This document shows, piece after piece, positions 1,478-60,339 of a DNA stretch of 64,000 nucleotides. Made by a program: the position numbers and the translations under genes. The stretch lies in assembly GCA_973895155.1 (NCBI GenBank), contig OZ316896.1:9869525-9933524 (forward strand). Direction: 5' to 3'. This DNA is from Marsupella aquatica (taxonomy: Eukaryota; Plantae; Marchantiophyta). Below the pieces are notes generated by a model that saw only the letters and a program-made list of their open reading frames with translations, did no database searches and was not told the origin of the DNA. Position 1 is the first letter of the stretch, and each line of letters begins with the position of its first letter.

Positions 1478-1484
1478 GTATAAA
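1478..1484 (+). promoter_or_regulatory. Candidate LTR TATA box
   Basis: TATAAAG followed by GA-rich sequence in the middle of the LTR; position only, no other support. Confidence 0.35.
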
Positions 1485-2292: not shown

Positions 2293-2310
2293 TGGCGACC
2301 ATACTGGGGA
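2293..2310 (+). other. Primer binding site (tRNA-Arg-like)
   Basis: TGGCGACCATACTGGGGA, 4 nt after the 5' LTR; resembles the TGGCGACTCCACTGGGGA PBS of Tat/Ogre-type elements. Confidence 0.7.
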
Positions 2311-11858: not shown

Positions 11859-11920
11859 GACCGGTGACTACTTGTCCCCAACGTATACCAAGCATAACGG
11901 ATATCGAGGACGAATCCGTA

Positions 11921-11936
11921 GGTAAGCAAAGGAGAA
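11921..11936 (+). other. Polypurine tract
   Basis: GGTAAGCAAAGGAGAA directly before the 3' LTR. Confidence 0.6.
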
Positions 11937-36311: not shown

Positions 36312-36636
36312 TGTGAAAGTTTACCTTTCTGTTTCGGTGCTCGTCAAATCGTGTCTATCCGTTCCAGGTGTCGGTTAGTCTACATTTACATACAGTAGTA
36401 TCAGGCTTACTGTAAGCCACATTGCTTTCGTCGTTTTCTGTGCCACATGGCTTCCGCGGGACAACGGTGTGATAAGGACTGAGGTCCATCCCCGCGCCAC
36501 TATGTACTCTGGCTCTCGCCCTCTTTTGAGGCATAATGAAATCTGCACTCCAGGAAGTTTTCAAAATCGTGTTCGATGGCTTTGAGTGTTTTTTTCCTGT
36601 CTCGTGTTCAAGCTCTGCGCATCTAACGAGTCGACA
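36312..36636 (+). repeat. Copia 5' LTR
   Basis: TGTGAAAG...GTCGACA; one mismatch to the 3' LTR seen by eye. Confidence 0.96.
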
Positions 36637-36648
36637 GGTTATGGGCCT
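36637..36648 (+). other. PBS of the half-tRNAi-Met type
   Basis: GGTTATGGGCCT directly after the LTR, like the GGTTATGGGCCC site of Drosophila copia. Confidence 0.8.
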
Positions 36649-36734
36649 TAATTCTATAGACTGCGCTTGCACTACACTCTGACTGAGATACTCAGCTCCG
36701 TTCTTTCTTTATACAGATTTTCGTCAATTTTACC

Positions 36735-39700: not shown

Positions 39701-41147
39701 GGAAACATTTGCCTCGGTGGTCAGGCCAGAAACATTTCGAACCATCATGGCACTGCTGACCCTTCACAATCTACACGCTAAATCGTTTGATGTGGTTACA
39801 GCTTTCTTGTATGCACTAATGGCAGGCCAGATACCAATTTATGTGCGTCCTCCGCCAGGATATGAGGAATATGACGAAGCAAGTCGATTACTTGTTTGGC
39901 TTCTTCTAAAAGCCCTTTATGGTCTTTGACAGTCTCCTCGACTGTGGTACCTTGAACTTACACAATTCTTGGCTGCCTATGATTTTTTACCGCTTCCGGC
40001 TGATCCTTGTGTACTCAAAAATCCAGCAGGGGATTTACTCGTCTTGTGGGTGGACGATATAATCACCATTGCAAAAGAGATGCAGGCTATTGACCGCATG
40101 GAAGCCATACTCACATCTAAGTATGAGCTACGCGAGATGGGGGAGCTCACTGAATATCTTGGTCTACTTATTATCCGGGATCGAGTACAAGGCACACTCT
40201 ACCTTTCTCAGCGCACCTACTCCGAAAAAATTCTGAGTCGTTTTCACATGGAAGATTGTGTTGCTTTACAAGCTCCATCAACCGGTGCTGATCGTTTGCT
40301 TCCCAATCCAAGCCAAGCAACAGCTGACCAACGTCAATTATATCAAGCTTTCGTAGGTTCACTCATGTACCTCTCTGTCTGGACCCGGCCCGATATTGCT
40401 GAACGTTGTTCCAGATTGGGACAATTCGCGCATAATCCCGGTGCAGAGCATCAAAGCAACATTCGTCATGTTCTTGCGTACCTTAAAGGCACTCTCGATC
40501 TGGGAATTACCTTTTCTAGCTCTGCCACTTATGGGATTGAGGTCCACTCGTTGAATTTTCAAGGATACACTGATGCATCTTTTGCTGACAATTCTATGAA
40601 TCGACACTCAACATCGGGATATCTTTTCAAACTCGCGAATGGGGCTGTGAGCTAGAAATCTCGTAAACAGCCGGTCCTGGCTACAAGTTCTACCGAGGCT
40701 GAGTATATTGCATACTCAATCGCTGCTAAAGAAGCAGTATGGCTTCGAAATCTGCTATTACAGCTGGGGCATTCTTCTCCTGATATTCAGAAAGTCATCA
40801 TCTACGGCGATAACAAACCGGCGCTAGCACTTACGATTAATCCTGAACACCACAGCCGCACTAAGCACATCGAAGTTCAGTGGCACTACGTGAGGGAGCA
40901 AGTCAAGAAGGGCATCGTTTCACTGTCTTACCTTCCTACAGGCGAGATGCCTGCTGACGGCCTCACCAAACCTTTGGCTGGTGCTTCTTTCTTGCGTTTT
41001 GTTAAGCTTCTTGGGCTCCAGTCTCTTCCGCTGGAAGTCCGTGTCCCATCCGGGGGGTGTCCACGTCCTTCGTTGAATTTCATTTCGCCAGGAGGAACCA
41101 AACGCAAACGGCCTTTCTCTGATTTGAGCGAGCCGGGGGGTGTGTGA
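36735..41147 (+). pseudogene. Copia gag-pol polyprotein with stops at 39927 and 40653
   Basis: CSFC..H..C knuckle, WISDSGA protease, HRRFAH..CTVC, HMDL..CDNG..VER integrase, YKARFVARG, WVDD, YTDASF, TKHI. Confidence 0.95.
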
Positions 41148-41467
41148 AAGTTTACCTTTCTGTTTCGGTGCTCGTCAAATCGTGTCTATCCGTTCCAGGT
41201 GTCGGTTAGTCTACATTTACATACAGTAGTATCAGGCTTACTGTAAGCCACATTGCTTTCGTCGTTTTCTGTGCCACATGGCTTCCGCGGGACAACGGTG
41301 TGATAAGGACTGAGGTCCATCCCCGCGCCACTATGTACTCTGGCTCTCGCCCTCTTTTGAGGCATAATGAAATCTGCACTCCAGGAAGTTTTCAAAATCG
41401 TGTTCGATGGCTTTGAGTGTTTTTTTCCTGTCTCGTGTTCAAGCTCTACGCATCTAACGAGTCGACA
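41143..41467 (+). repeat. Copia 3' LTR, preceded by PPT GAGCGAGCCGGGGGGTG
   Basis: Direct repeat of 36312-36636. Confidence 0.96.
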
Positions 41468-42030: not shown

Positions 42031-42430
42031 TCCCAAGCTCCTTTTCCCAAGCTTCCCAGGCTATGTACCTTGCCCACCCTAGTCCCCAATGTTGTTGAGC
42101 TTCCCAGGCTCTGTACCTTACCCATCCCAGTCCCCAGTGTTACTGAGCTTCCCATGCTCTGTACCAAGTCCCAATTCCCAATTCCCAATTCCCAATGTTG
42201 CTGTTCTCTCTTGCCTTAGTAAGTTAATGCTCCTTTTTCCCAAGCTTCCCACCCAATGTTGCTGTTCTCTCTTGCCTTAGTAAGTTAATGCTCCTTTTTC
42301 CCAAGCTTCCCAGGCTCTGTACCCTGCCCATCCCAGTCCCCACCCTGCCCATCCCAGTCCCCAATGTTGCTGTTAGCTCTGGCCTGAGTTTGCCAAAACA
42401 TGTACACCAATACTCCAACATTTTGTCACC
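42031..42430. repeat. CCCAGTCCCCAATGTTG / CTTCCCAGGCTCTGTACC terminal repeat cluster
   Basis: Several short tandem units, including a ~59-bp duplication at ~42190-42310. Confidence 0.75.
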
Positions 42431-42757
42431 TGTGTGGGCTCTATTAACTTTGTGTCATCAACTTTGGGTTCATGTTTTGACATTTACTTGTTGTTGCCTG
42501 CTCCAGCCCAACTCCCCAATGTTGTTACTCTCTCTGGCCAAGTTTGCCAAAACACAAACCAAGATTTTATTCATAATTATTCATGACTTTTATCTAAACT
42601 ACTAGACTTTGCCCTGAACACTCAGACTCTATTACAAAAGAGACATGACTCCATTGAAAAGAAGTGCTATCATAACATAAAAACACTACTCCATAGAAAA
42701 GATTGAATCAACCTATTCATTAAAAGTGTATTTTCTTTTGTTCACAAATGAGTCTTG

Positions 42758-42835
42758 AAATGTACACTTTCATGGCCCCAAATGTACACTTCAAGACACC
42801 CAAATGTACACTTTTGTGTCTCTAAATGTACACTT
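42758..42835. repeat. AAATGTACACTT array (left)
   Basis: Four copies about 21-22 bp apart. Confidence 0.85.
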
Positions 42836-43092
42836 TATAGGCCAAATATATCACATTAGTATTATATTAATAAATAATACATATTATATTATTTAATAAT
42901 TCACAGAGAAGTGGAGGATAGGAACTTATAAAAATATTTCATCCCCATTTAAGGACCAGATATTGTGTGAACAAAATAACATCATTCCAAATAGATTATA
43001 AAATATCTTTATATAATTATCTGCAAATTTACAATGAATACGAACATATTTGTGGTACTATCCAAGGGGATTAACACAAGTCAATTAAATAT

Positions 43093-44251
43093 CTAAACCA
43101 AGTGCTCTGTACAATGTGTATTTGAGCATGTGCCCCTGTCTCCTTTCCTATCTACCCTATTGTCACGGTTGCAACGCCCTTTATTTTCAGGGAGTTGAAA
43201 TCTGGTGGTGTTGTTCCTAATGGCTATAATCTCGCGCAAAAAGTGTCTGGGATTTTCTCTATATGGACCTGAATAGTCCTTTCCTAAAAATGATTTAGCA
43301 AGTGAGTTGACAAGTGCATTGTCAAGTTCCGCCTTAGGACGTAAACTACATATACGGTGCTTTACATTCCAAGGGATCTCATTGCTGTTGAGGTCCAACA
43401 CACTATGCGTAAACTGTTACTTCCAAATTTTTGCTGCAAATCTCTTGCTAAGTTGATCATAAGTAATCTCATTTTTTGCCTTGTCTCTCTTCATGTGCAA
43501 AAGAGACCACTTTGGAGAGTTGAGAAGAAGATAACATCGAATGTCACTTGCATGTGATAGTTTCTCAAGACATGGCCAAAGAATTGCTAGAAGAAAATTA
43601 TCTCCACGATTGGCATGCGTGTAGGGCACTGGAAATAATCCGGTCATGTTTGGGTTAGCAAATGCCTTAAGGGGGGAGTCATCCACAAGGAGGGTGTTGG
43701 TTTCATTATATAGATTTTCAAATGCATTCCATACCACCTGAAAATCCTTCAGTAGCACATTTGTCTTTCCGTTTGTAATGTCACGCCTTTGAATGCCTGT
43801 GTCAAAAGCTTCCACCTCTGTGAATACAAACTGGAGTTTTGACCTCTCCTCATCAGTGAACATCATGTTCAACATTTTCATTGTTCACGGTATCCCAGCA
43901 CATGTCCAAATTGCAACGTCAAATCTGTCAAAAACCAACTTTAGAAACTCATGGAGCCCTGGTCGTTCTGTATACATGCGACTAATACCATTTTTTCTAT
44001 CCCAATGCACTCCACTTGAGGTGACAATATTCCTGGATGTGCCCTTGCTTTGGAATTCAATAGAATCCCAAAGTATTTTATTAAGGTCCAAAATCAGCAA
44101 CTTCCGCTTGACGGGACCAGGTCTCGATTCTGCAAGTGCACCAAACACCATTCTCAGAGAAAAGACCAAAAGTGAACTTTGGATTAGGATTGTCTCAGTC
44201 CAAAAATACAAGACAATGGCTGACAAAAAAGAAAAGTAACCTACATACCAT
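43093..44251 (-). pseudogene. FCP1/SCP-like (NIF) HAD phosphatase domain protein with two in-frame stops
   Basis: KLLILDLNKILW, ERPGLHEFLKLVFDRFDVAIWT, KDFQVVW, TLLVDDSPLKAFANP; ORFs 43885-44226, 43417-43881 and 43093-43401 share one frame. Confidence 0.85.
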
Positions 44252-45134
44252 TTTTAGAAGCCTCACAATGTGTAGACGGATATGGAGACTTTAATTGGTG
44301 AGCGCATTCTATGAGACCGAGAAATATTTTAGATTGATATGAATAAATAGAAAGTCAAAGGCTTAATTTCATTTCGAAATAAAAGATCCGTATTCATCAA
44401 TAATCATGTCAGCACCAAGCTCCTGTTGGATTTCAAAATTGACATCTGAAGTACTTTGTTCTACCCAATAAGGTGAAGTCCAAACAGGAGTTATCAACCC
44501 CAATTCTCCCCTCTTATACTCCTCCTTATTGAGAATTGAAGGAGCAGCATCCAATGATATTTCTTGGCCTTGATTTGGCCCACTTTTCCACACGTAACAT
44601 CGTGCATCGCATTCCAATGACCTCCATCCAATTGATCCAACTCTATTATTTTCCTTTCTTTTTTGAGAGCGGAAGGACAATAGGACTCCCTGAGTGTGAA
44701 CGAACGAACACCAATTTGTCATCAGAAGCTGAAAAGAGTGTGTCAAGACAAGTTGAAGCACCTGCCTGGTTGTCAGCAGCCGTTGATGCATTTCCTCCTG
44801 GATTGATCGGAATGTCAGGCAATCCGCCAGTCTCCCCCCGAGTCAATTCTTTAGTTTCAGCTTCATTTGAATCTCCAAGCCTCGTTGCGCCTTCATTGAT
44901 CAGATTGGTTGAAGAAAGTTGATCAAACGTATCAACCCTTGCTCCTTCCAGTTGCTCCATCTGTCCTCCCAGCGTTGTTGGATTGGGATCATCCTTGTCC
45001 AAGTTATCATCAACTTGAACTTCATTGGGCCCCGGAGGGATGTCATCTAAACCAGATGAACGGTTTGGTGCAAGTCCAATATCATCATCTACATCGTAAG
45101 GCTCACCTTGACCAACACGGTCATCCAAACCCTG

Positions 45135-46153
45135 GGCCCTCACTCTTACTATATGAAGTGAACCCCCCTGAGAACAAACACCCCCTGTACCCCTTCTTAA
45201 TATTTTTGTTCACAAAAGAAATCCCATTGTTAATGTAAAAATATTAACTTTTCCTATTAAATTTTATCTTTTTGTAAATTATAATAGAGTTTTTCAAGGA
45301 ATTGAAAACACCCTTGAATTTTTAGAATTACAAATATCATATTGAAATAGATAAAACTTTATCTTTCATAGGGGACTTGTATGTTATGCTCGATCTTCAA
45401 GGTACATATTTTATATATAGATAAATAAAATTAGTACGAGAGAAAATTATAGTTCTTCCTATAGTTTACACATAGCCATGCACTCTTGTCTTAGTGTTCG
45501 CAAAAGTGCCTCTAAACTTCTAGTTTCATAAATACTATATATGCATAATCCAGGAATAATACTCCAAAGTCTGAACCAACTATAACAAACATTGTTGAGC
45601 GCCTGAGACCCCTCCCTCAACACACAAACGCATCTGGCCTCATACCTGGTTGTTTGATTCAAGGGAATCCAAAAGTAATCTTGTCCTTCCATGTGGGATT
45701 GATCCATGGATCCCCATCAATCCTAGTTTCCCAACCAAGTTGGGCCCAAAGATTCTAGCCCAACATTTACTCAACTCCCCAGTTAACTCCTAAACATGCG
45801 GGTAAACATGTCTACCCAAACCCATTTGTTCCACCATAAGGGGACCAACGAAACCAAACTTGCCTTAAGACAATAAATAATTAAATGTTTGATTTACTAT
45901 ATGGACACGTGTGCAAATGAAGTGATGACATGTGTGCCAACCATATAGTGACGCGTGTACTTGGCATTTTGGGTACCCTTGCATAAGATTTATGTCACAT
46001 GTATTGATAAGAGTCTTATTACTAATATTGTGGCGAATGTATATAGAGGGATGTTGCCTACTTTAAAAACTATTATAAAAATTAGTTTGCATTACATTAA
46101 AAATACCCTTGCATTGTTCGCACGTCCTCCCTGTATTAGTAACACTAAGGGCC
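45135..46153. mobile_element. Non-autonomous TIR element (MITE-like, PIF/Harbinger-Nuwa-like ends), copy 1
   Basis: GGCCCT...AGGGCC ends within CCCTG / CAGGG flanks; removal restores NLDAQGLDDR; homologous to 50649-51942 in inverted orientation. Confidence 0.8.
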
Positions 46154-47842
46154 CAGGGCATCCAAATTCTTGACATATGCCTCCTCTGATGCCTCTACGC
46201 CTTCAGCCACTTTGTCAACAACATCTTCAGACTCAGAACCATCGGATTCAACAGCGACAGCTACAGCCGCAACAGTGGTAGCCCATTGTCAAGAATTTTC
46301 AGCAAGTGATTCACAATGGGCTTTAAGTGGGGGAACTCTCTCGCAAAGGTAGGAAGCAAAAGCTTCCACAAAATGCCTCTCGGAGTGAGAGTCACAATAA
46401 ACAAAGCATTCCCTATCGCAAAAAAATGATGTCTTCATGACTTGGCCACTACAGAAAAAATCTAGAACCAAATCTCCCGGTTCTGACAAGGATTCAATAA
46501 TCCTTCGGATCATCCGTGTGGGTTTGGCATGAGGATTAACCCACCCTCCGCGACTGCCAACTGTCTCAAATCGAGGGGCCATATTCATAATCTTGACGGC
46601 CTCTTCCGGGTCCAAAACCACTTTTAGGTCATCATTTTGTGTCCCCTCATCTGATTCCTTAGCCTTCCCCTTTCCCTTGTTGATCTTGCATACTTTGTAA
46701 TCAACATCCTTTGAAGTATACAAGAATTTTGGCTTTGGATAGTTGGGCTTGAAAACTTCATTCCGATTGACGTCTTCATCTTGAGAAATCCCTGCAAAGA
46801 TAACTTCTTCAATCCCCCCACCCCAACATGAGTCATGAGGGTGCGGTTGATCATCTCGAGAATAACTCCCATACTCAATGTGAATGGTCAAAGCTTTCTT
46901 GTCCCAATTTACGAAGGGCACCATGGACATTCAATGCAAGTTGTCCAGGATGAACTGTTATCGTCACAACAGTTGTGGGATTTTGTTGAAGCTCCACAAT
47001 ATATTCAAAGAGAACAAGAATCCCTGCTTCAGTCCATTGTTTTTGCGGAAGCCGGCTAAAATCAACAATGGCAAGAGGGCAAGTCGGAGGAGCTTCTTGC
47101 AATGACTCTGGATCAATGGTCTTCATGAGATTGTCGCTAAAAAATGTAACCCATGGTAGGGTCCGAGAACGTGATCCTCCGCCAAATTTCTGGCAGTATA
47201 TATCATCTAGGCGGAATGCCAATGCCGTCGGCAAGATTGCGCTCTCCCGCGTATGATTTGGCTTTAAAAGGTTGGCAAGATAGACCTTGCCAGCGACTCT
47301 TCGACACCTGCTGATCTTTGAATCAATTGCTAGCGTAGGAAGAACCTCCACTACTTTCCCCCAATTAGTATTTGTCGGGAAATTCACCGCATCCTTGGTG
47401 CAATAGTAGTCTTCAATAAGAGACTCTAGTCCGCACGATCTTCACATCTTTGGCCAACTCCTCTATAGATGGCATGTCTGATTTATTAGAGGCATCTTTC
47501 TTTAGCAATACCTTTCTTGACTTCACCCGCGTCAGTATTCTTGTGATGTCTTGTTGTGAGATCAACTCACCATCAAAACAACAAAACATGGAAACAGTAA
47601 TTGCTTTTTCAGACTTCTCATTTCCTTCTACCCCAGCTCCATCGGGAAGTTTCCCATCCAACCACAACTGGCATACCAAACTCCATAACTCACAAAGAGC
47701 ATTGTCCGCAAACAGTAACCAGTAAACATTTTGACAATCTTTCCTTCCCAGGGTCATTCTTGCAAGAGCCAACCAATCCTACAATTGCAAAGGAAAGTCT
47801 GTTAGTTCTCCATAACTCAATTGTTTGAAAGCACTCAGGTGC

Positions 47843-48470
47843 GGACTGAGACCATCCCAGTCCAACACAGAACTAGACAGTATCAGTGGAAATATTCTAT
47901 TGAATGTGCATGATTTAGTTTGGACTGGGACCATCCCAGTCCAGAACAAAACTAGACAGTATCAGTGGAAAAATAATCTATTGAATGTGTATGAATCCAT
48001 TTGGACTGGGACCATCCCAGTCCAACGCAAAACTAGGCGATATCAGTGGAAATATTCTACTGAATGTGCATGAATCCATTTGGACTGGGACTGTCCCAGT
48101 CCAACACAAAACTAGACGATATCAGTGGAAATAGTCTATTGAATGTGCATGAATCCATTTGGACTGGGACCATCCTAGTCCAACGCAAAACTAGGCGATA
48201 TCAGTGGAAATATTCTACTGAATGTGCATGAATCCATTTGGACTGGGACTGTCCCAGTCCAACACAAAACTAGACGATATCAGTGGAAATAGTCTATTGA
48301 ATGTGCATGAATCCATTTGGACTGGGACCATCCTAGTCCAACGCAAAACTAGGCGATATCAGTGGAAATATTCTACTGAATGTGCATGAATCCATTTGGA
48401 CTGGGACCATCCCAGTCCAACGCAAAACTAGGCGATATCAGTGGAAATATTCTACTAAATGTGCATGAAT
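47843..48470. repeat. ~79-bp minisatellite, about 8 units, each with an 11-bp-stem palindrome; intronic
   Basis: TTGGACTGGGA-CCA-TCCCAGTCCAA plus a constant linker, in tandem. Confidence 0.95.
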
Positions 48471-48951
48471 CTAAGGTATTGTACCCATCAAGTAGTAACA
48501 CTTTGTACCTGAAATTTTTGATTGTCTTGAGCGTTTGTTTTGTTGTCCCCATGTTTTGGCCGGCTAGGTCTTCCACATTCCACAAATTGTCGCCTAGCAT
48601 GAACAACTGTATCTTTCAAGCATGACTGAAACACCATCGTGCTATTGATCGCATTAGATCGCATTGAATGCTCAACTAATATTGACAATGGTGTTCGATG
48701 AGATAATATTCTTGACTTTCAAAATTCCAGCTTTTTTGCCAATGCTGTCAGCTTGGCATCCTTGTTTGCCCATTCTCGAATCCATCTGGCTGCTCTGGCC
48801 GAATGTTGACCGCTAATGGCAAGGAATTGAACCTTTCCCTTTTTCACAACTGTTACAAAGTCCCTCCTATCTGATTCCGTGTTGGCATACTGCATTAGGT
48901 TTCTATGTTTTGTAGTGTAAGGAATCAAGTCTGCTATGTGTGGTTCATGCC

Positions 48952-49427
48952 CCCGGGTATGCAACTCCCCTTTTTATAAGGCAAGTTTTTAATTCCTTAT
49001 AATGGCCTTATATTCAATTGACCATCTTAGATTTCATTTTCGTGTACTAAAGTCTTGTACCTCTCAACTCAAGGAATCCAAAAATGTAACTTGAAATAAA
49101 AACCAAGCATGTTTTGATGTACAAATAGTTGATCAAAACCAAATTATATGGGTTTTTTTTAATACAGGGGTCTACAGCCAAACTAGCCAGCTTTTTAGGA
49201 TTTTTATTAAAATTTTAAAAATCTTTTAATAAAAATTAAAACATGTATAGGAATATTTTTTAATTTCATATGGAAAAAGAAGAAAACCAAACCTTTTATA
49301 TGACTTGAAAATTTTTAAAAGTGGAAAACCCAGGTTTTTTCAAATTTTAATTATTTTGTATAGCCAACTTTTTAGTCCATATAAAAATGTAGACCCCTGT
49401 CTATTATATAAGAGTTGCGTACCCGGG
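48952..49427. mobile_element. MITE with 16-bp TIRs and a TSD of at least 8 bp, inserted in the ParB-like domain
   Basis: CCCGGGTA(T/C)GCAACTC inverted ends; TTCATGCC duplicated at 48944-48951 and 49428-49435; excision restores NPGHEPHI. Confidence 0.9.
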
Positions 49428-50648
49428 TTCATGCCCCGGATTTCTTATCATGGAATTGGCCACCTCCTTTACATGGTCTGCATTCAACATTCTATAACAG
49501 AGTCTTGCCGATGCAGGGAAAATACTGTCTACGGGAATAGAAAATATTGAATTAATCCCAAACGTATAATATTGCTCCATTTGTTGCAGTACCTCATTAC
49601 CTTCTAAGACCTTCTTCTCCTCAGGAGCGTCCAACTGCTCGTCCACATCTTGTGAATGCACTGTCAGGTTTTCTGTAGTGTCATCCATGATGGCACTGTC
49701 AATTTTCTGTTTCTTCTTCTGTCTTGGCCTCTTTTCACTTGCACTCGGCTTCTCAACCGGACGTTTCTTCTCAACTGGCTTCTCAACTCGGCTTCTCGTA
49801 CTCGACTTCTCGTACTCGGCTTCTCAACTGGCTTCTCAACCGGAGGTTTCCTTTGTCTTTGTTTTTGTTTTCCCACTGCTCTTTGAGAGGTCGCTGCTGT
49901 AGTTCCTGCGGTCTCTGTTGTAGGTTTTGGAGCTTTCTCTGGCGCTTGCTCGGGCACAGGGTTTGTATTCACCGCTGGAAGCTTTCTCATCTTGGACAAA
50001 GATTCTATCCATTGCTTTGCTTTGACTAAATCAAACTTGGGAGCAAATGCAACATCCTTATCAATTAAAACACCAGGCTCCTCCGCCTCCAACGATAACA
50101 ATCCAGCTTTCTCAAGTAAATTGCTTAACGTCCAGGTAGTTGCAAAAGAAAAATTGCTTTGGTGCTTCATCATGTTGAGTTTCAAATATTGAAACCCATA
50201 CATAATGTCGACTGGAAGCATACCAGTTACCCCGATGACCAACTTCTTTGTGTCATAGGTCTTTGGAAAAAATCCCATTGACAAAACGCTCAATTCCCCA
50301 CTTGCGTGCCATTCGACATTGAATTCAGAGGAGTATGCCTTTGACAAAAGGTTAACTTTAACCCAACAAGACCTATCGTGCATCTCGAGAATGACCGAAT
50401 TCATCCCTCTCCCTCCAATGCCAACAGAGACCATAGGTCCGCAAACAAAAGTCAGGCTATCATTTTCTCTACACTTTAAGGTCAAAATAGGTTCAATCGT
50501 GGTTGATGGCACTTCATTATTGAGCGGGTTTCTTGAGAACTCAAGCCCCATCAAAAGCGTGGGGATCTCTCATCTAGTAAGAATCCATCCAGGCAGTGGG
50601 TCGGTGCAATCGCGAGTTTGAAAACAACAAGATTGCTCCCTGCCCCTG

Positions 50649-51942
50649 GGCCCTCAGCGTTACTAATGCAGGGAGGACGTGCGAACAATGCAAGGGTATT
50701 TTTAATGTAATGCAAACTAATTTTTATAATATTTTTTAAAGTAGGCAACATCCATGTATATACATTCATCACAATATTAGTAATAAGGCTCTTATCAAAT
50801 ACATGTCACATTAATCTTATGCAAGGGTACCTAAAATGCCAAGGACACGTGTCACTATATGGTTGGCACACATGTCATCACTTCATTGGCACACATGTCC
50901 ATATAGTAAATCAGACATTTAATTATTTATCCTCTTAAGGCAAGTTTGGTTTCATGGGCTTGCATGGTAGACTTGTTTACCCGCATGTGTTAAGTTGGGA
51001 GTTAAGTAAATGTTGGGCCAGGATTTTGGGGCCCAACTCCTTTGGGGTTCTGGGATTGATGGGGACCCATGAATCAATCCCACATAGACAAACAAGATTA
51101 CTTTTGAATTCCCTCAAATCAAATGGCCAGGTATGAGGCCAGGTGTGTTTGTGTGTGGGGTGGTGTACTCCCTTGATCCGAGCCTTGATCATTGGGTTGG
51201 GGGGGGTACCCGGTGCTCACAGTTGTTTGATTGTAGAGATGGCAGGAAAATTACCCACCATGTCTAAGTAACAATTTCAGCCAAAGGAGATTTGATGGTA
51301 TTACTCTCCACAATTTTCAGTAGTCATTTTTTGTATTATTATTACTTTGTGTCTAGAATATATATGATTAATGTGTGGTTTGATGTGTCAGGTTGCATGA
51401 AAGAAGTTGTCAAAAACTCTACTTATCATTTGGTGTTAATGGTTGATGTCATACCATTCTTAGTCAAGATAGAATAATTTAGCAATTGGAGTTTACATAA
51501 GTAGTATATATGCAATTATTCCTCCAAGGATATAGCATAGCATAATAATGCCTTTGTACTAGTTCAGTTTATCTCTATGAGGTCTACAAGTTGCCTGAGT
51601 TATAGTCATATACTCTAGGAAGAACTATAAATCTTTAGTACTAATTTTGTTATGATCTATATAAAATATGTACCGTGAACATCAGCGTAACATAATATTC
51701 CCCTCTGCAAAATAGAATCTTTTATGTTTCAGTATGATATTCACAATTTTTAAAAATTCAAGGGTTTTTTTAATTCTTTGAAAAACCCTGTTATAATTTA
51801 CAAAAGGATAAATTTTTATAGGAAAAAATAATGTTTTTACATTAACAAGGGATTTGTTTTTGTGAACAAAAATATTAAGAAGGGGTACACGGGGGGTGTC
51901 TGTTCTCAGGGGGGTTCACTTAATATAGTAAGAGTGAGGGCC
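50649..51942. mobile_element. Non-autonomous TIR element, copy 2 (inverted relative to copy 1, ~275 bp longer)
   Basis: Both ends are reverse complements of the ends of 45135-46153; CCCTG / CAGGG flanks. Confidence 0.8.
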
Positions 51943-52015
51943 CAGGGGAGAGATCCAGGAGTTTATGCACACTTTAGTGTCATTGGCCTTTGGCCAGGAG
52001 ATGCTAATTTCACAG

Positions 52016-53036
52016 TGATTTTTCTATGAGAGATAATGTACCAATATTTCAGTATAAGTCCCATGTAAAGCAAGCTTGGGCTCCAGTTGGTGGAAGGTGC
52101 ATTTGGGCAACAGATCTGGCAACAAATTCTCTTCTTTTACCTAGTGGAGAGCCCTTAGCTAAATCCATTGGAGAGATACACAAAAACTCTGAAGAGATTA
52201 TCCCATTTCTTAACAAGTACCTTGATTTTTTGAGAAGGAGTTGCACTGATGAGACATCTATAGCATATAAGGAAAGATTTCCTTTTGTGAAATATTGGGA
52301 GAGAATTGTGGAGTTGTTGACAAATGGGCTTGCACTAGAAGGGGAGGGAAGTACTCAATTTCCCTTGAAAAACAGATTTTGGCCTAAGACTAACCACGGC
52401 ACTGGTTACAAGGTCAACCAACCGGAACAAAGTGGTCCTCCAAGTGAAGATGAGGAGAATGCAGAGATGACGGCTCTTCAAAATGAGGTCTTGGAAGAGA
52501 TGGCAGATCAAGCAGCACCATTTGTTGGATCTCGAGCTGAGAGAGAACAAGGACGATGGATTCCTTTGCAGGATATTTGTGAAGGAAACTTTGTATTTCT
52601 TCGACCCGAGGATGATTGGGAGAATAAAAATGGTGGAGGTCATTTCTGGGTGGTGAGAGCTTTGGGTTTGGTGGACCCAAAGCATGAAGTCCCAACTACA
52701 TCTTCAACAAACTCTTCTCTGCCTCGACAGTACGCTCCAATGTTCCCAATTGAATGGTGGAGGCCTAAACACTCTAAACTTGATGTGACTGAGAGTGCGT
52801 GGTATCTAAATTGTTTCATGTCCACTAAGACATGGGAACGAGATCCAGGGTTTGGTGAGAATACTCAACATTGGCAGTATGCAAATTTTGCAATGTATGG
52901 TTTTAAATCTGGAATGAAAAAAAAAAAACATGGCGGGCAGAGGTTTGAAGATCCCTCAAAATGTTCTACAAACTGTCCAAAATTATCTTCAAAGGATGGA
53001 CAAGTAGACTTAGTTGTTAGAAGCTATAATAATTAA
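52016..53036 (+). pseudogene. 5'-truncated last exon of a putative transposase (C-terminal part), frameshifted in the A-run at ~52920
   Basis: Acceptor CTAAT..CACAG at 52015; FSMRDNVPIFQYK..W.P and GNFVFLRP..FWVVRA..IEWWRP resemble C-termini of DNA-transposon proteins (possibly DUF7869 type); no catalytic core present. Confidence 0.4.
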
Positions 53037-53259
53037 ATAGATAGTTACTAGTTTTTATGTAACTAAGATAGTCACTCATTCAAACATAATAATTTATGTA
53101 CTAGTTATTTATTATTCTAATAGTTTTAATCTGATACTATCTCCTCATTTTCTAAACTTTTGATCATTATGAATATGAATGTTTGCTTTTTCTACATAAT
53201 TAAAAATATTTTTCTATTCATTCCTTTCTTTTAAATGATTATAAGAAGAGTTGGTAGGC

Positions 53260-53583
53260 AAATGTACACTTTTTAGGCCAAATGTACACTTTGTTGCACT
53301 AAAAGTTACACTTTCTAGACCAAATGCACTTAAATGTACACTTTTTAAGCCAAATATATGCATTTTTCACTCAAATATACACTTTCTAGGCCAAATGTAC
53401 TCAAATGTACACTTTTAAAGCCAAATGTACCTATTTTGATGTTCAAATTTACACTTTTCATTGCCCAAATGTACACTCTTTAGGCCAATTATACACTTTT
53501 CTATCCCCAAATGTACACTTTTCATTGGCCAAATGTACACTTTTCCAAGCCCAAAAGTACACTTTTCATTGCCCAAATGTACA
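53260..53583. repeat. AAATGTACACTT array (right)
   Basis: More than ten degenerate copies, most about 21 bp apart. Confidence 0.9.
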
Positions 53584-55492
53584 TAAATAAAATAATAATA
53601 CACTTTTAATGAATAGGCTGATTTGAAGCATTTGATACTCTTTTTGGTAGAACATCAACCTCGGGGGCCTCAATCCAAGGGGTGTCCCATATCACGCGCC
53701 AAGTTTTGGGGGAATAAACACCCTAAAAGTTAAGTCAATAATTTTTTTTTTTGGAATTTTTTTACCCCTAACGTAATGGAATATTCTAAGAATATTCCCA
53801 AATTTGATTAAAAAAACCCTATGATTCTTAGAATTCTCAAAATTGGATTAAAATAACCCTAATGTTCTTCCACAAAAATTTAAAAGTATTTCACTAAACC
53901 CAATAAAAAAACTCTATACTTATTCGCACGTGATGGGTAGGAAGAAAAGAAGTGAGGACCCCGGGACATCAACCAAATGAATACTCTATCAATCACGACT
54001 CTTAACCAAAGTACTAGTCTCTGTTTGAACACTAAGACTTTGTTTTGAAGAAGACATAACTCTTTTGGAAATAATGTGTTACCAGAACATAAACTCAATA
54101 GAGAATAAACATTTGATAGAACATCAACCACTACTGTATCAAAAAATCATGACTCTTAAACCATTACTCGTGGTATATAAGGAGCTATGGTATTGTATGA
54201 CCATTAATGTTGGGAAGGGCGCATAGGAACCCAGGATTGGGGAGGAGGATCAGATCTGATTTAAGCTGCCCAATGTTTCAGGCACTGGATACACTTGGGT
54301 ATGAGGACTGCAAGTAACCCAGAGCCCCTTATATTGTCTGGTAGTTGTGGCCCAAGTTGTGGGTTAACCAAAGTACTAGGCTTTGTTGGAACACTTAGAC
54401 TCTCTACATAGCAAGCAAGACTCAGTTGGAAAGAAGTGTTTCCAAAACATAAACCACAACTCCACAAAGGACAAGTAGATGGCACAAAGTCAATTGGGCC
54501 GGTGACAAAATGGTAGAGTCTTGGCTATGTTTCATATGACAAACTTGGGCTGGAGTGGGCAACAACATTGGGGGCTGGGACGGGCAGTGTATGGAGCCCC
54601 GAGAAAATGGGGAGCATTTACTTGATGTAGATTTAACATGGGTCTTTCGTAAATCTCATCAATTCTTGAAAAACTAGAAGTCATTGCATAAACTCAAATT
54701 TCACGTCATTGCATAAACTCAAATTTCATGGCATTGCATAAATTCTAAATCATTAGATGTAATTAAGTGAAGCATTTCTGTGTGCGTATTTGTGTGGAAC
54801 CCTTAGATGTAATTAATTGAATCAATTTTGTGTGGGAAAACTCTCTTAAGATTGTATGTTGGGATGCTAAAATTGTGCATAAAAGTAGTCAGCATCTGTG
54901 TCTCACTATTATATCTTAGATCATCCAATAGCTCAAGTTAGTGTTGTAAATAAAAAAAGTAGTCAGTGTCCCTACATCCTTGCAAAGGCATCAATTATGT
55001 GTAAAGTAGATTCAACCTGCTTTTGCAACAGTCAAACACATACCATAGTAAATGTACCTGCTAAAAAATGAGGGATCATGTGCTTACATTATAGAAAAGA
55101 AGGTGCAAGCCAATCTTGGCCCTTCACTTAAATAGAACTCTGGTGGTGTCAGATCCACCCAATATGGAATGTTGCCCTTTACTGGGCATTGTCAATCTCC
55201 AAAACCCAAAAACAGTATGAATGGTTTGTGATTGTCAACAGAAAAACATGGATATATCACACTGCCGAAAAGCCAAACCAGGAGACATGAACCCAATAAA
55301 GGGGGGAAGGGAAGGATCCCAAGAAGACCAAAGAGGCCCAACAAATCAAGGAGTATCCCACAAAAACAAAACGTAACAAAGAACAAACTTTGATTGGTTA
55401 AAACACCCCCATTGCCTCCCAACTGCCATCGCCTCTAGTACTCTTGAATTCTTGATGCTGTGCACTTGGGTCAGCCTGCTGAATCTGGTTAA

Positions 55493-55633: not shown

Positions 55634-56040
55634 AGTAGGAAATAAGATCAAGCAGCCAAGTTGACAAAAGAATATATATATGAAGAGATTCTTTATCAAA
55701 AATAAATAAAAATTGCATATAATTATGTGGTTCACTCTTTTCACCTTATGATCATATTTACAATTAATACTTTGTTTAAGTTCATTGACCAGGAGTTCAT
55801 TGACTTTGTTCACTGGTCAAAACCCCAGGTACTATTCCCAGGATTTTCATTGACTTTGTTTGCAGGTCAAAACCCCATGAATGCACAGGTACTATTCCCA
55901 GGATTTTCATTTAATTTCTTCCTACCTGTCGTGCAAATAAATATAGGGTATTTAAATTTAATTTAATGAAAAAAATACATTTAATTTGTGGAAGAATATT
56001 AGAACTATTTTAATCCAGTTTTGAGAAGTATAATAATTTC

Positions 56041-56172
56041 TGCCCAAGGAGGGTCTTGTGTCTAGTTAGCTAGTTGGTGAGGTAATGGCTCACCAAGGCC
56101 ACAATCAGTAGCTGGTCTGAGAAAATGATCAGTCACACTGGGACTGAGACATGGCCCAAACTCTTACAGGAG
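56041..56172 (+). pseudogene. Degenerate 16S rRNA fragment (plastid/cyanobacterial type; probable NUPT)
   Basis: TTAGCTAGTTGGTGAGGTAATGGCTCACCAAGG..AGTAGCTGGTCTGAGA..ATGATCAG.CACACTGGGACTGAGACA.GGCCCA.ACTC.TAC.GGAG matches the conserved 16S stretch ending at the 338F site. Confidence 0.88.
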
Positions 56173-57164
56173 ACATACCGTAGTCGTCATTAGGTTTGCG
56201 ATCACCGACCGCGAAACATTATTTTTAAGGCGTTTCCACCTGCCGCGATCCTGTGGGCGATTTTTTCCCAGCCGTCGATGATCCTAGTATCGATATATCA
56301 GTGTTTTTGCGTTTGCCTGCCCTAAACCCTTTGTTCGCGGCGCCATCTAGGTTTCTCTTCGTGTTCACGGTAGAGGGACCGATGAATGTTGTGTTCGCGG
56401 CAGCGATGGATTCCTTGGAGCTTTCGCGGTTTAGCGCGTCGATAGGGTTTGTTTGGAGATTTTGCGAGCAGCGGGAGTGAGATTGTTGCCGAATGGAAGG
56501 TTTGCGATTGTCAGGGCTGCTCATTTTGATCGTCGATGTGAATTGGTTAAATTTGGAGCTGAAGCGGGAGTTGAAGACCTTCATAGAATCAATCCTACCG
56601 TGTTTACGACCGTATCCAGCCCTTTAGTGTGCCGGTTACAATTTGAAGTCCCATAAGTGCTTGCATGTTTGATTCGTAGCTCCATTACTCTCTTCTTTCT
56701 AGGTACATTGTAGTGTACAATCTTTCTTGTTATACATTACAGGCATCTGAGGAAACAACGTTCATATTGGACAAGGTAAGTGCATCCGCATGAATTGAAA
56801 CGTAGGTAGTTACAAAACTTGTATTTCTTTCACATTCTTGAAGTGCAAGCTCTCTTTCGCATATGTGAATGTTGACGGCTGTTCACTGATTGAGTGCCGA
56901 ATTCTGATTGAATGCAAGCGTGAGGGGATTTGTAATTGAATTAGCAGCTATGGAGGGAAGGGCTGCAAGATGGCGAGGAAAAGAAGCGGGAGTAAGTGCT
57001 GCCTCAAACCTTCAATGGATTTGTGATGGTTCACAACGCCATCGATCATCGGCAAGGAATTAAATACCAAGGGATCGGCATACAAGCCGATTACGAGGGC
57101 AGAACAAATTGAGGCCCTATTAGAAGCCGAGAGAGCACAGCGGCCTGACTCTCAGGAGCAAGAG

Positions 57165-60100
57165 GTGGATGAGATGGACAGACACAATCCAGAGCCAAGG
57201 CAGGAAGGGGAGCCGACCACCAATTCAAAACCGAATAGACCGGCAAGGGGACAATCTATGGACACCAAGGACGGGACCGACTCGGCTACTCCAGCCGAGA
57301 TTCCAGTTTATGGAGGTATGAGATTAGAGAGACTGGAAGCCGAACTGGACCCGAATTTGAAGAAGCAGATTAATATGATCCAAGCACGGCAATATCAGAA
57401 GCTCGACTTAGGAGAGGGAAGAGAACTGAACTTAGGGAGAAACCTAGCACCTGAGCTCGAGAAAGAGATCAGTGACTTATTGATTGAATTTTAGGATGTG
57501 TTTGCATGGAGTCACCAAGATCTAAAGGGAGTAGATCCAACACTAGGGGAACATCGAATTGATCTCATGTTAGGAGCCAAATCATTTCGACAACCAATTC
57601 GAAGGATGAACCCGAAGTATTCCCTGCTGGTCAAAACAGAAATCGACAAACTAGTGGAAGCTGGATTCATCACTCCAGTCCTGCATTCAAACTGGGTGTC
57701 TCCAATTGTGATAGTTCCCAAGAAAGCTGGACCCGATGGTAAACCCAAGATCCGGGTTTGTCAGGATTACAGGAAGCTGAATGAAGCAACATTAAAAGAC
57801 CATTTTCCTTTACCGTTTACTGATATGGTACTAGACATGGTAGCCAGTCATCAACTATATTCATTCATGGATGGATACTCTGGTTATAACCAAATCAGGA
57901 TTCGGCAGGAAGACCAAATCAAGACAGCCTTCATCACGGAATGGGGGATCTATGTCTTCAATCGTATGCCGTTTGGACTCTGCAACGCACCAGCTATGTT
58001 CCAACGATTAATGGTGAACATTTTTCATGATTACTTGAGAAAGTTCATGGAAATCTTCATTGACGACTTTGCAGTATTCGGGAAGGCATTGAAACATGCC
58101 AAATACCTCAGGAAAACCTTCATGAGATGTAGAGAGGTGGGTCTCAAGTTACACCCAGATAAATGTTTCTTTGTAGTAACCGAGGGGGTGCTACTAGGTC
58201 ACAAGGTATCAAGGAAGGGCATTGAGATTGACAAAGGTAAGCTAGCAGTATGGCTAGATATCATGCAACCTAAGAACATAAAGGATGTAAGATCCTTCTT
58301 GGGATGCATTGGTTACTATCGCCGGTTCATCAAGGATTTTGCCAAGCTAGCTTTACCATTAACCAACATGCTCAAGGCAGGAGCAGACTTCGAACCCACA
58401 CCCGAACGAGTCACAGCGGTGGTAGAATTGAAGCAGATGTTAGTAGAGGCCCCAGTCATGATAGCACCGGACTGGAACAAAGATTTTCATGTTTTTGTAG
58501 ATGTCTCGGGCTTCTGTATTGGCTCAGTACTAAGTCAGTTGGATGAGAAAGGAAGGGACCATCCCATATACTTCGCAAGCCGTCAGCTTGCCGATGCCGA
58601 ACGGAACTACTCTACCACGGAAAGAGAAGCATTAGGAGTCATTTATTCTTGTAAAAAGTTTAAGCATTATTTACTAGGGTACAAGGTAATCTTTCATACT
58701 GATCATGAAAGTTTGAAGTACCTAGTCAATAAGCCGGACCTTACAGGCAGAGTAGCAAGATGGATTTTGCTATTACAGGAGTTTGACTATGAGCTGAGGA
58801 TCAAGCCGGGAAAGTTACATGCCAATGCCGACTTCTTTTCAAGGATCACAGGTAAACCTGCCACGGATTGCATCGATGATCGATTCCCCGACGAGGAGCT
58901 ATTCATTGTGGAAATAGCTGGTACATGGTACCCTGAAATTTTACAATTTCTCAGCACTTCCAGATTACAGCCAGGATTAAGCCGAGAGCAAGCCGCAGTC
59001 TTTGTGCGGAAGGTCAGACAGTATCAGTGCATTAAAGGCATACTGCACAAGCATGGAATCAACGGCACGATTCAAAGGTGTTTGGAAAAGAGAGAGGTAA
59101 AACGAGTCCTACGGGCCATGCATGGAGAGGAGGCCGGAGGACATTTTGCCCTAGTAACCACGTCTAAGAAGATATTAAATGCTGGTTACTGGTGGCCCAC
59201 CTTGCACAAAGATGTCTATCAGTTTATCAAACAATGCGATCCTTGTCAACGAGCGGGAGGACCAAGGGCGTCCACCAGACATCCACTGCACCCTATTCTA
59301 CCTCTGGCACCATTCGAGAAGTGGGGTATTGATTACATTGGACCTCTGAAACCACTGACCCACCCTCGACGGAACAAGTACATAATCCTGGCTACGGATT
59401 ATGCAACTAAATGGGTAGAGGCCAGACCAACAACGAAGGATGATGCAATTACTACGGCTAGATTCATGTATGAGCAGATCTTCACCAGGTATGGAGCACC
59501 CCTGGAATTAGTTAGTGATAGAGGAACCCATTTTTTGAATGATATAATTAGTCGTTTAAATAAGCAGTATTTAGTTAAACATAGGCCTACTACTCCCTAC
59601 CATCCAAAGGCAAACGGGTTGACAGAACGAGCAAACGGAATTATAGGAAAGATATTGAACAAGATAGTAGCTCAGAACAAACTCGATTGGGATGATAAAT
59701 TGTTTGCTGCTATTTTTGCTTACAATCTTGCCTATAAATCCACTACCGGTCATACACCCTTCTTCTTAACCTTTGGACAAGAAGCCCTGGTACCCATGCA
59801 ACTTGAGATACCGACATTTCAAGTTACAATTGAGGAAAGAGCCTCAGCGGAGGAGAGCCTAAAGGAGCGAGAATATAGGTTAGAAGCTTTAGAGGAGGCG
59901 AGAATGATTTCAGCCGAGAGAGTAGAATATAGACAGAATATCATGAAGCAGCAGTATGATAAAAAGTTGAAAGTAGTTAGTATTCATACCGGTGATCTTG
60001 TGCTACTTTATGACAGTAGGTATAGTAGGTTTCCAGGAAAGCTTTACACTCGCTGGTTAGGACCCTTTAGAGTAACCATGATGTTCCCCAATGGCTCGGT

Positions 60101-60236
60101 ACAATTGGCCAACATTACGGGAGAGATATATCCAGTTCGCATCCATTATGACCGCCTCAAGAAATACTATATGGACGAAGATGAAGTTGTTCGCGAGGAC
60201 GCTTCACAATTAAGTGGGGAGCTATGTGATGCCTAG
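57165..60236 (+). pseudogene. Gypsy pol (RT, RNase H, integrase) with a stop at 57492
   Basis: MPFGLCNAP, FIDDF, ERNYS, GGHF..CDPC, GIDY..SDRG..TER, WLGPF. Confidence 0.95.
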
Positions 60237-60339
60237 ACAGGAATCACTCGGCCAGTTAAGTGGGTAAAGCAGGAAGGCACCCTAGGAACACCTTAGTATA
60301 GGGACAAAACAAGGAAAATATAAACCATTAGGGGCAACC

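Follow-up and report, generated by a model that had tools for sequence, protein, structure and literature searches.

A decayed DNA transposon of a liverwort carrying a ParB-like and methyltransferase-like accessory gene with a replaced catalytic motif

Accessory genes are rare on DNA transposons, and few have a known job. A 64,000-nt stretch of the Marsupella aquatica genome (the window, meaning everything that was analysed) holds, between inverted repeats, a minus-strand gene with motifs that recall ParB and amino-methyltransferase proteins. What is the unit that carries this gene, and does the encoded protein modify DNA? The unit is one copy, now decayed, of a cut-and-paste DNA transposon that is repeated and has terminal inverted repeats (TIRs), and we see roughly even chances that its accessory protein, a predicted methyltransferase (MTase) fold minus the catalytic motif, is a probably non-catalytic DNA-binding helper acting at the element's own ends.

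The element, its ends and its other copies

The left and right TIRs match at 25 of 26 positions and a 4-nt target site duplication (TSD) fits at this register (Table 1); this TSD comes from a single copy, and the end position is backed by contigs from other insertion sites, which diverge from the reference after 53622/53623. In the 64-kb window, the inner inverted repeat is one of few 24-nt inverted matches, the rest being MITEs and an intron satellite. The two subterminal arrays together hold 16 near-palindromes in the same orientation, the motif itself being nearly palindromic, and all 14 matches to AAATGTACACTT with at most one mismatch across the window fall inside the element, which confirms the subterminal arrays described in a sequence-only reading. 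That reading had also placed a mobile unit at 42031..54623; the unit and its inner inverted repeat are real, but the true span is 42707-53622 and the outer repeat is separate. When the outer inverted repeat was tried as the element termini it was rejected: the flanks, once joined, align colinearly to another unit of an older repeat, contig depth is about zero past 53625, and in one run a lone contig of single depth covers 53987-54823. The outer repeat is supplied by this older, separate repeat, into which the element inserted.

Table 1 Features of the element and of the surrounding older repeat
Feature	Position	Strand	Remarks
Left part of older host repeat	42031..42702	.	hosts the insertion; outside element
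Target duplication TTGA, 4 nt	42703-42706 / 53623-53626		borders element
Transposon copy	42707..53622	.	10,916 nt; ~8.1 kb minus its three MITE insertions
Left TIR	42707..42732	+	26 nt
Left subterminal array	42758..42835	+	4 copies of near-palindromic AAATGTACACTT, 22-nt period
NIF/HAD-like gene	43084..44200	-	approximate start; two in-frame stops
Acidic linker end, conserved C-terminal domain (GP.KG ... DEYGS)	44372..45129	-	one frameshift near 44646
MITE 1	45130..46158	.	ends CCCTGGGCCC; 8-nt TSD CATCCAAA; missing in other copies
Exon 2: helical domain, then beta-class MTase-like domain	46159..47778	-	two frameshifts, one stop
Motif I region, MTase-like domain	~46445-46465	-
Motif IV position, MTase-like domain	~47063-47052	-	DFSR
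GT..AG intron	47779..48508	-	730 nt, phase 0 before Asp-Trp; contains 79-nt tandem array
ParB/DGQHR-like domain (R.LNADHV ... AISGQHS)	48509..49650	-	split by second MITE
Second MITE	48952..49427	.	CCCGGG ends; 8-nt TSD TTCATGCC; missing in other copies
Upstream accessory frame	49650..50569	-	~190 aa, K/P/E-rich linker with frameshift
Third MITE	50644..51947	.	MITE 1 family, opposite orientation; without TSD
DUF7869 transposase remnant	51948..53036	+	matches P0001 aa ~684-705, then aa 930
Right subterminal array	53260..53583	+	12 copies of AAATGTACACTT, at most 2 mismatches
Right TIR	53597..53622	-	26 nt
Right part of older host repeat	53627..54623	.	split by very high-copy MITE
Very high-copy MITE in older repeat	~53660-53965		TSD ACATCAAC

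In public contigs the element is a high-copy family, with contig depths of 722, 864 and 2288 on the element versus 24-43 on unique flanks and of 4164 and 4410 at joints that lack the MITEs, depth not being copy number. Other copies are without the two in-gene MITEs, which contigs in other runs skip (joints 45121>46159 and 48941>49426), and without several of the lesions. The 8-nt TSD of the second MITE was read at its junctions, where the same direct repeat is up to 12 nt long; both in-gene MITEs had been recognized from the sequence, the first with limits a few bases off (45135-46156 rather than 45130-46158). TIRs, TSD and contig depth uphold the proposal of a multi-copy plant DNA transposon family.

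The divergent transposase-like gene noticed earlier proves to be a plus-strand DUF7869 transposase remnant, which is 45% and 39% identical to proteins of PF25273. Similarity to its relatives marks the gene as a DUF7869 transposase, perhaps Sola-like, of which the N-terminal half and catalytic core are gone: the match to the relative P0001 jumps ahead at 52018/52019, the core with DNSGKDNKN and GHTHED is deleted, and a frameshift lies at an A-run near 52917. Loose contig ends at 52018/52019 indicate that other copies run on into the missing core. The relatives are DUF7869 proteins with acidic core motifs that by eye are unlike the Sola2 alignment, and the DUF7869 motifs may resemble those of Sola1. 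Intact copies would move by cut-and-paste with this protein.

The third MITE marks a deletion at which both neighbours are truncated, and comparison with relatives suggests the loss there of the intergenic stretch and of ~680 codons from the start of the transposase gene. The transposase arm and the accessory arm meet at this MITE; no contig outside the window shows both genes, the search having yielded one contig of 1.8 kb, and none of the contigs placed on the window spans the element. Could the arms stem from two members of a single TIR family, one a cargo-only element and the other a transposase element, that recombined at the central MITE, so that transposase and accessory gene would not normally share an element? 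The truncations, the missing TSD and the lack of a linking contig are what such a join would leave. However, the matching TIRs, common array motif, shared TTGA and colinear empty site imply that the unit was inserted as a single piece, and the junction is accounted for just as well if one element lost the DNA between two of its MITE copies. For this reason, we give the recombination scenario little credence.

A conserved plant gene family and its companions

The gene's fragments had been predicted to rejoin once two MITEs and one GT..AG intron (48508-47779) are removed, and they do: the pieces are colinear with the full-length relative P0040, and the motifs first quoted (R.LNADHV, AISGQHS, HAKP..IRRII..SEPGDLVLDFF) are present, although frameshifts and stops remain in this copy, including a stop at 48719-48721 in the ParB/DGQHR-like domain. 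The protein further has a long acidic linker and a conserved C-terminal domain. The upstream frame gave no family match and no match among the relatives.

The accessory gene is a member of a family that is conserved among plants. The family search returned 35 matches, 32 of which were viewed: 29 belong to the accessory family and the other three are ordinary bacterial-type MTases. In a tree with 12 viral MTases the family forms one clade (100/99), the members that could be named are liverworts of two genera, and the acceptor position of the intron recurs in a distant relative (L001). Because the intron is shared and the family forms one plant clade, the protein would be long naturalised in plants, probably descended from a prokaryote-type module of ParB/DGQHR and beta-class MTase domains. 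Two Riccia sorocarpa copies, identical at 435 of 446 positions, come from separate chromosome-scale records, which speaks for mobility in that plant too. For most relatives, what is available is a short contig that lacks genomic context.

The N-terminal region is tentatively assigned as a ParB-like domain of the DGQHR/DndB branch. Its hhalign score of 23.7 compares with a maximum of 18.2 among 100 shuffles and 20.7 for a true ParB control (hhalign probability 9.9%), Pfam DndB matches one of five rows at E 0.028, and the structure model has a pLDDT of 38.8. The DGQHR/GxxR nucleotide-binding arginine is absent, all three covering sequences reading SGQHS, and comparison with phage ParB_N gave no significant match. 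The ParB-like call made on the quoted motifs is thereby weakened, and moved from the phage ParB_N type tested toward DGQHR/DndB.

The NIF phosphatase also proposed at this locus is a NIF-domain protein (Pfam NIF at 29.2 and 28.1 bits on its two halves, cut-off 21.8) resembling eukaryotic HAD-IIID/UBLCP1-type proteins. FCP1/SCP (NIF) phosphatases have the catalytic motif DxDx(T/V). In this copy DLNKIL replaces DxDxT and TLLVDDSP is kept, so that the domain call holds but DLN stands in place of the catalytic DxD. Public contigs place the NIF gene within the same element ends as the accessory gene. In none of the accessory-gene relatives did a NIF domain turn up, either within the gene or beside it.

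Are these genes simply passengers, taken up by Pack-TIR style capture or as a domesticated host gene, of no use to the element? The context-free relatives leave room for this, and the NIF gene, with its eukaryotic-type resemblance, may be a recent capture. However, motifs across the whole accessory gene and its intron position are kept in distant members, the Riccia copies are near-identical and dispersed, and contigs of three organisms show the gene over its full length as a high-depth repeat; passive cargo is accordingly very unlikely in our judgement.

A predicted methyltransferase fold with a replaced catalytic motif

In the window, the Pfam N6_N4_Mtase match (30.2 bits, cut-off 26.7) covers the motif-I stretch only. 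The structure model of P0040 (from residue 463 to 737 or 752; pLDDT mostly >85) superposes on CcrM with Z 17.6 and rmsd 3.5 over 217 aligned residues, and on M.RsrI, PvuII and N4CMT with Z 16.2, 16.1 and 15.6; the family profile matches M.RsrI at E 1.2e-8. Through this model and profile the Rossmann MTase fold was found, and the intact relative is predicted to fold as a complete beta-class amino-methyltransferase, permuted with motif IV before motif I.

The fundamental question is whether such a fold can still act. The catalytic motif IV, DPPY/SPPY, is replaced by D[FL]xR in 13 of 13 covering relatives (11 distinct clusters) and in the window, the residue-level register being deduced from the ranges that align and from the order of the strands, and [DNS]PP[YFW] occurred in none of the family sequences scanned. 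Profile alignments left this register unfixed, as one began past the motif and one was misaligned; another put the viral DPPY ~8 residues upstream, where there is no canonical motif either. The accessible text of PMC10406627 describes the Pro carbonyl and the Tyr stack as needed in solved amino-MTases. The SAM motif I, FFSGG-type in 25 sequences, falls short of the FxGxG pattern by one residue and is not followed by S/T-T. At the end of the next strand, where 50 of the 60 viral enzymes have Glu/Asp, the acidic residue is shifted or lost, and the position is mostly Ser.

One hypothesis, which takes up the self-marking idea of the sequence-only reading, is that the protein is an active, non-canonical amino-methyltransferase that marks DNA or RNA of the element itself. 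Members only 22-30% identical agree strongly in the first Asp of motif IV and in a motif resembling a SAM site (VNPxxKP, DFFSGG), which could mean retained chemistry; the predicted fold is complete, and Iyer et al. noted unusual strand-4 motifs in eukaryotic permuted MTases. Yet the Pro-Pro-Tyr that holds the target base has given way to F/L-x-R throughout, in addition to the altered motif I and mostly Ser next-strand position, and we regard this hypothesis as unlikely. An alternative is a pseudo-enzyme working through a partner in the manner of METTL14, which would pair with or decoy a host MTase or silencing factor, the NIF-like protein serving as another modulator of chromatin or transcription. 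Beta-class enzymes work in pairs, as dimers, inactive partners such as METTL14 are known, and the conserved C-terminal domain, acidic linker and NIF gene within the same ends would suit this role; the DLN substitution and the NIF-free relatives count against it, and we consider it distinctly improbable.

Since the catalytic motif is missing in every relative examined, the protein is likely a DNA-binding helper rather than a methylase. We propose that it no longer transfers methyl groups and would bind the 22-nt-period near-palindromic arrays, probably as a dimer, where it may help assemble the transpososome or shield the ends from host silencing. The working DNA-modification module envisaged by the sequence-only reading is not supported, given D[FL]xR in all 13, the short motif I and the non-canonical ParB-like and NIF motifs; nor is the suggested route by which 4mC enzymes entered plants, as DN4MT1 and N4CMT keep TSPPY/SPPY. 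A bolder idea, which we rate as rather improbable, is a widespread Sola-like lineage in non-seed land plants whose parS/ParB-type end-binding system is fused to a repurposed amino-MTase fold with a new D[FL]xR active site. On the element's palindromic arrays, the protein would either set a non-canonical mark or recognize methylated bases, and so escape silencing. If true, this would add to VANC another anti-silencing system of independent origin, and a possible source of plant 4mC enzymes. The family comprises apparently old, conserved and unannotated plant proteins that join a ParB/DGQHR-like domain to an MTase fold with a family-wide rewired active site, and it cautions against taking every PF01555 match in a bryophyte genome for a 4mC/6mA writer. 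The obvious candidate binding arrays and a tractable liverwort allow a direct test.

Comparison with known systems

CcrM, M.RsrI, PvuII, bdelloid N4CMT and Marchantia DN4MT1 share the permuted fold and motif order. Beta-class enzymes keep DPPY/SPPY/TSPPY, whereas the accessory family, at 7-14% identity, has D[FL]xR; the SPPY motif of DN4MT1 and N4CMT, which are described as host genes, is absent from it. The ParB-N6_N4 MTase fusions of phages (such as L088, 425 aa; Atlas rows at 0.78-0.80) have the same domain order, ParB-like then beta-MTase, but L088 has intact GHQR and DPPY and the plant protein has an extra helical domain of ~190 aa. MTase folds have also been captured by eukaryotic transposons in DIRS1 elements and DNMT-bearing retrotransposons. 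These carriers are retrotransposons with other MTase classes; in the accessible parts of the sources, the DIRS1-borne Dam-like domains are judged inactive and the DNMTs are active C5 enzymes (PMC4738411, PMC5890265).

As to the transposase, Sola elements have 4-nt TSDs and TIRs of 11-1124 nt, occur in the moss Physcomitrella and, in the case of Sola2, can carry cargo (Fanzor), according to PMC10741241 and PMC3627910; the 4-nt TSD, 26-nt TIRs and size of the window element agree with that description. The Sola2 core motifs DFAENY and FFATSHGK (PMC3627910 supplement) differ from the DUF7869 motifs HDKMDQ, DNSGKDNKN and GHTHED, and the accessible Sola literature contained no report of MTase-like cargo.

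A close parallel lies in red algae, where PF01555/ParB accessory genes and arrays on DNA transposons are already known. As far as the available text describes (bioRxiv 10.1101/2025.02.11.637652), Plavaka PAG2/PAG3 are accessory genes on large DDE DNA transposons, a PF01555 gene and a ParB-like gene, the latter beside inverted-repeat arrays proposed as ParB binding sites, and the cassette passes from one TE superfamily to another. In the algal cassette, which sits on EnSpm/Plavaka, Mutator or Zisupton elements, PF01555 has SET as its fusion partner and ParB has a 2OG oxygenase; no SET or 2OG domain matched in the window segments or relatives. The liverwort element, compared with PAG2/PAG3 by description, likewise has arrays of inverted repeats within it (16 near-palindromes, two arrays), but it joins ParB-like and MTase-like parts in one chain with the catalytic motif replaced, adds a NIF gene and has a DUF7869 transposase and a land-plant host. 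By analogy, the window element is a further variant of the red-algal-type arrangement, and the parallel with the Plavaka cassette on a different transposase suggests repeated recruitment of ParB/amino-MTase modules by plant and algal transposons.

Limits and repetition of the element

The inverted repeats, subterminal arrays, two gene-interrupting MITEs, intron and motifs quoted in the sequence-only reading were all found in the window, and the multi-copy transposon that it proposed is real. Its limits required revision. Among 13 in-register boundaries compared, 42707/53622 alone yields a 4-nt duplication (TTGA), with terminal inverted repeats (TIRs) of 26 nt that match at 25/26 positions. Contig depth across 53500-53690 is 10,000-38,000 and then approximately zero past 53625, and contigs that diverge from the reference after 53622/53623 into dissimilar sequence were observed in two runs (7 in one and 2 in another). 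Moreover, the joined flanks are colinear with one other unit of the repeat that encloses the element (score of 114 vs 85 for the left flank alone); a second unit gave no gain (92 vs 92). The TTGA duplication at one register, the contig ends and the colinear flanks therefore define the element as 42707-53622, and the outer inverted repeat previously taken as its end belongs to an older host repeat. Two other candidate pairs of ends, CA..TG with a 2-nt AT duplication and GAG..CTC, were dropped since 42707/53622 gives a 4-nt duplication and agrees with where contigs stop. The subterminal arrays hold 16 copies of AAATGTACACTT, all in one shared orientation and each near-palindromic.

The sequence was found in six public runs from three organisms (0/6 recorded as RNA), and contigs from four of the six were compared with the element. 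Unique flanks have contig depths of 24-43. Depth rises to 722, 864 and 2288 for single contigs within the element and to 4410 and 4164 at joints from which the two gene-interrupting MITEs are missing. Contig depth is not equivalent to copy number; we infer a family of tens to hundreds of copies. Several frameshift sites and one stop of the window copy are different in other copies, which also carry S-G-G at motif I (the SAM-binding motif) of the accessory gene. Because other copies differ at these lesion sites, the window copy is a decayed representative of a family whose frames are still open or were so until recently. Of the 20 variants listed, 7 are synonymous and 13 are not; they mix family variation with decay of the window copy and do not serve as a selection test. 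No contig among the four runs compared spans the whole element.

The window as a whole is plant-type DNA rich in transposons, among them Ty3 and Copia elements. Four MITE insertions in it fall into three families; all four have CCC/CC(T)CGGGG-type ends, and three have 8-9 nt target-site duplications (TSDs). In one run, a contig at depth 398 connects 51949, where the central MITE family ends, with 42715 in the left TIR, so there may be a subfamily whose TIR contains an inserted MITE of the central type.

Features of the window and the element (window coordinates)
Feature	Position	Strand	Observation
First Ty3/gypsy element	420-13805		1870-nt LTRs, 98.1% identical; long extra ORFs in frame downstream (700 and 404 aa), without convincing Pfam match
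Open frame	25810-26832	+	340 aa; no Pfam match
Copia element	36312-41467		325-nt LTRs, 99.7% identical, though pol has in-frame stops
Element	42707-53622
Palindromic unit	44179-44204		One unit related to the intron array, between accessory and NIF genes
MITE	45130-46158
Intron array	47843-48471		79-nt tandem array (7.9 copies) with 25-nt palindrome
MITE	48952-49427
Upstream region	49667-50569	-	~190 aa, apparently globular, upstream of ParB-like domain; no match in Pfam, PHROGs, NCBIfam, PADLOC or stored relatives
MITE	50644-51947
Transposase core deletion	52018/52019
MITE	~53660-53965		Highest depth within the 15 kb compared with contigs
MITE-related end	55896-56037
SSU rRNA match	55931-56172	+	Rfam bacterial-type, 83.5 bits, clearest from ~56055; probably a short organelle-derived fragment
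Second Ty3/gypsy element	57027-63975		Long extra ORF in frame downstream (699 aa), without convincing Pfam match

The accessory gene family and its methyltransferase-like fold

A search of the full protein library with the motif-I segment returned 35 proteins. Of these, 32 were viewed: 29 belong to a single family and the other 3 to the ordinary bacterial-type methyltransferases (MTases). Two full-length members, P0040 (1009 aa) and P0058 (1219 aa), share the domain order ParB-like, helical, MTase-like, acidic linker and conserved C-terminal domain, and the window gene pieces are colinear with P0040. Named members come from Riccia sorocarpa (R1sor_011498, R1sor_008243 and R1sor_011623) and Calypogeia fissa (CAM6098565.1). 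Two eukaryotic Atlas clusters, at 0.98 and 0.94, contain mostly Streptophyta, and a 1673-aa Streptophyta Atlas cluster may include the ~190-aa upstream region. These relatives point to a liverwort as the probable host. The intron acceptor ahead of Asp-Trp is also present in a contig of a distant relative (L001). In a tree of 16 family and 12 viral MTase rows (10 of 60 plain viral rows sampled; DN4MT1 and N4CMT left out), the family forms one side of a 100/99 branch opposite the viral MTases, with a long-branch warning, and the window sequence clusters with its relatives P0003, P0007 (Calypogeia), P0006 and P0004 at 97/97.

Close relatives were confirmed for 0/7 candidates in viral contigs, 3/59 in prokaryote genomes (motif I only) and 1/178 in metagenomes, the last a 1.8-kb contig; a phage search for close relatives and a word-indexed search among longer proteins with the motif-I segment gave no match. 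PHROGs, NCBIfam and PADLOC returned motif-I matches to the large accessory protein and nothing else. Unnamed phage Atlas clusters at 0.93-0.94, obtained with segment 46878-47441, are not relied on.

Is the accessory protein a methylase? The Rossmann MTase fold was recovered on P0040, whose model has high confidence across residues ~280-745 and is not reliable for the N-domain. Its residues 463-737 align with complete beta-class amino-MTases, namely CcrM (Z 17.6, rmsd 3.5, 217 aligned), M.RsrI (Z 16.2), PvuII (16.1), N4CMT (15.6) and a METTL3-type enzyme (11.7), and a Foldseek search of the model likewise gave beta-class amino-MTase matches. Profile alignments left the register of catalytic motif IV unsettled. 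In the model, strand 492-496 terminates in Asp496, 32-33 residues past the domain start, and the corresponding distance to the motif-IV residue is 28 residues for CcrM Asp31 and N4CMT Ser107; from this geometry we infer that Asp496 would occupy the motif IV position. This position reads D[FL]xR in 13/13 covering sequences and DFSR in the window, and [DNS]PP[YFW] is absent from every family sequence scanned. Loss of the catalytic motif throughout the family is therefore a family trait rather than decay of the window copy. In 25 sequences, motif I has an FFSGG-type form that is shorter by one residue. The control of 60 viral MTases was chosen by motif, so its count of 59/60 canonical types is circular. 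In the portions of the sources covered, motif IV of solved enzymes holds the target base through the carbonyl of its first Pro and through its Tyr (PMC10406627), and mutating SPPY abolishes N4CMT activity (PMC8885841). The proposal that the accessory gene encodes a methylase is thus not supported by D[FL]xR and the missing [DNS]PP[YFW]. Non-canonical catalysis on the retained fold is an unlikely explanation given this motif, and action through a host partner is somewhat less likely still.

The ParB part of the proposed fusion fared unevenly. A three-sequence plant N-domain profile scored 23.7 against 29 DGQHR domains (E 0.003, probability 9.9%), exceeding all 100 column shuffles (maximum 18.2) and comparable to a true ParB-vs-DGQHR control (20.7); the alignment pairs SGQHS with DGQHR, with the key Asp and Arg replaced. 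DndB was matched in 1/5 rows, by the P0058 N-domain (E 0.028), along the stretch where a match would be expected. On the other side, no window segment matched a ParB Pfam, phage ParB_N profiles scored 14.5 and 11.4 (both inside the shuffle range), and the DGQHR HMM gave nothing significant with single sequences. Fold searches with the N-domain (Foldseek 0 matches at E<=0.001; best VIA Z 3.9) are uninformative because model confidence is low (pLDDT 38.8). A ParB-like assignment from these profiles is plausible but weak.

Transposase, NIF gene and a model for the intact element

Among 2177 candidates the plus-strand frame had 2 matches, both DUF7869 (PF25273) proteins, with identities of 45% and 39%; plasmid sequences searched with the transposase gave no match. 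The remnant aligns to residues ~684-705 of the DUF7869 protein P0001 and resumes at residue 930, and the core between, which in P0001 carries DNSGKDNKN at 817 and GHTHED at 851, is deleted in the window copy; loose ends of other runs at the deletion run into that core. The N-terminal part was lost at a MITE without a TSD. The N-terminal halves of the DUF7869 transposases P0001 and P0044 contain repeated domains, with a precomputed PF26133 match (P0001) and a faint Transposase_23 match (P0044, E 0.097), and possibly represent EnSpm-TNP1-like modules on a non-EnSpm core.

The first motif of NIF proteins is DxDxT. In the NIF gene, which occupies its own reading frame past the accessory gene's stop, this motif is DLNKIL; both halves exceed the Pfam cut-off and the closest matches are HAD-IIID/UBLCP1-like. 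Contigs at depth 722-864 connect the left array with the 3' end of the gene.

Our model, which we hold at about an even chance, is that intact elements would encode a DDD-type transposase and a divergent accessory pseudo-enzyme that would bind the regularly spaced subterminal palindromes and, once bound, would assist transposition or counter silencing. Its largest gap is that the transposase and accessory gene were seen linked in the window copy alone. A chimera of two family members is improbable, and so, to the same degree, is the idea that the accessory genes are passive cargo.

Relation to known systems

Literature searches found none naming DUF7869, none on ParB + N6_N4_Mtase + transposon in plants and, in titles and abstracts, none describing the accessory family; subscription papers and Repbase were beyond scope. 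The accessory protein is an undescribed variant on a real multi-copy transposon. The DUF7869 transposase may resemble Sola1.

The following comparisons concern the portions of each source covered. Sola is reported in moss, and the 4-nt TSD and short TIRs of the element are compatible with it (PMC10741241). PMC3627910 reports viral Mariner elements with MTases and Sola2 with cargo, and the Sola2 alignment in its supplement is by appearance unlike the DUF7869 relatives. Capture of DNMT by retrotransposons was described by De Mendoza et al. (PMC5890265), and DN4MT1 has TSPPY (Walker et al., bioRxiv 10.1101/2021.02.12.428880). Iyer et al. (PMC4738411) describe DIRS1 MTase domains that are inactive, as well as eukaryotic clades linked to ParB, among which no land-plant family resembles the accessory family. 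A Bostrychia preprint (10.1101/2025.02.11.637652) names VANDAL/VANC as the sole known self-modifying case and describes Plavaka DNA transposons that bear arrays of inverted repeats and carry PAG2 (PF01555 + SET) and PAG3 (ParB-like + 2OG).
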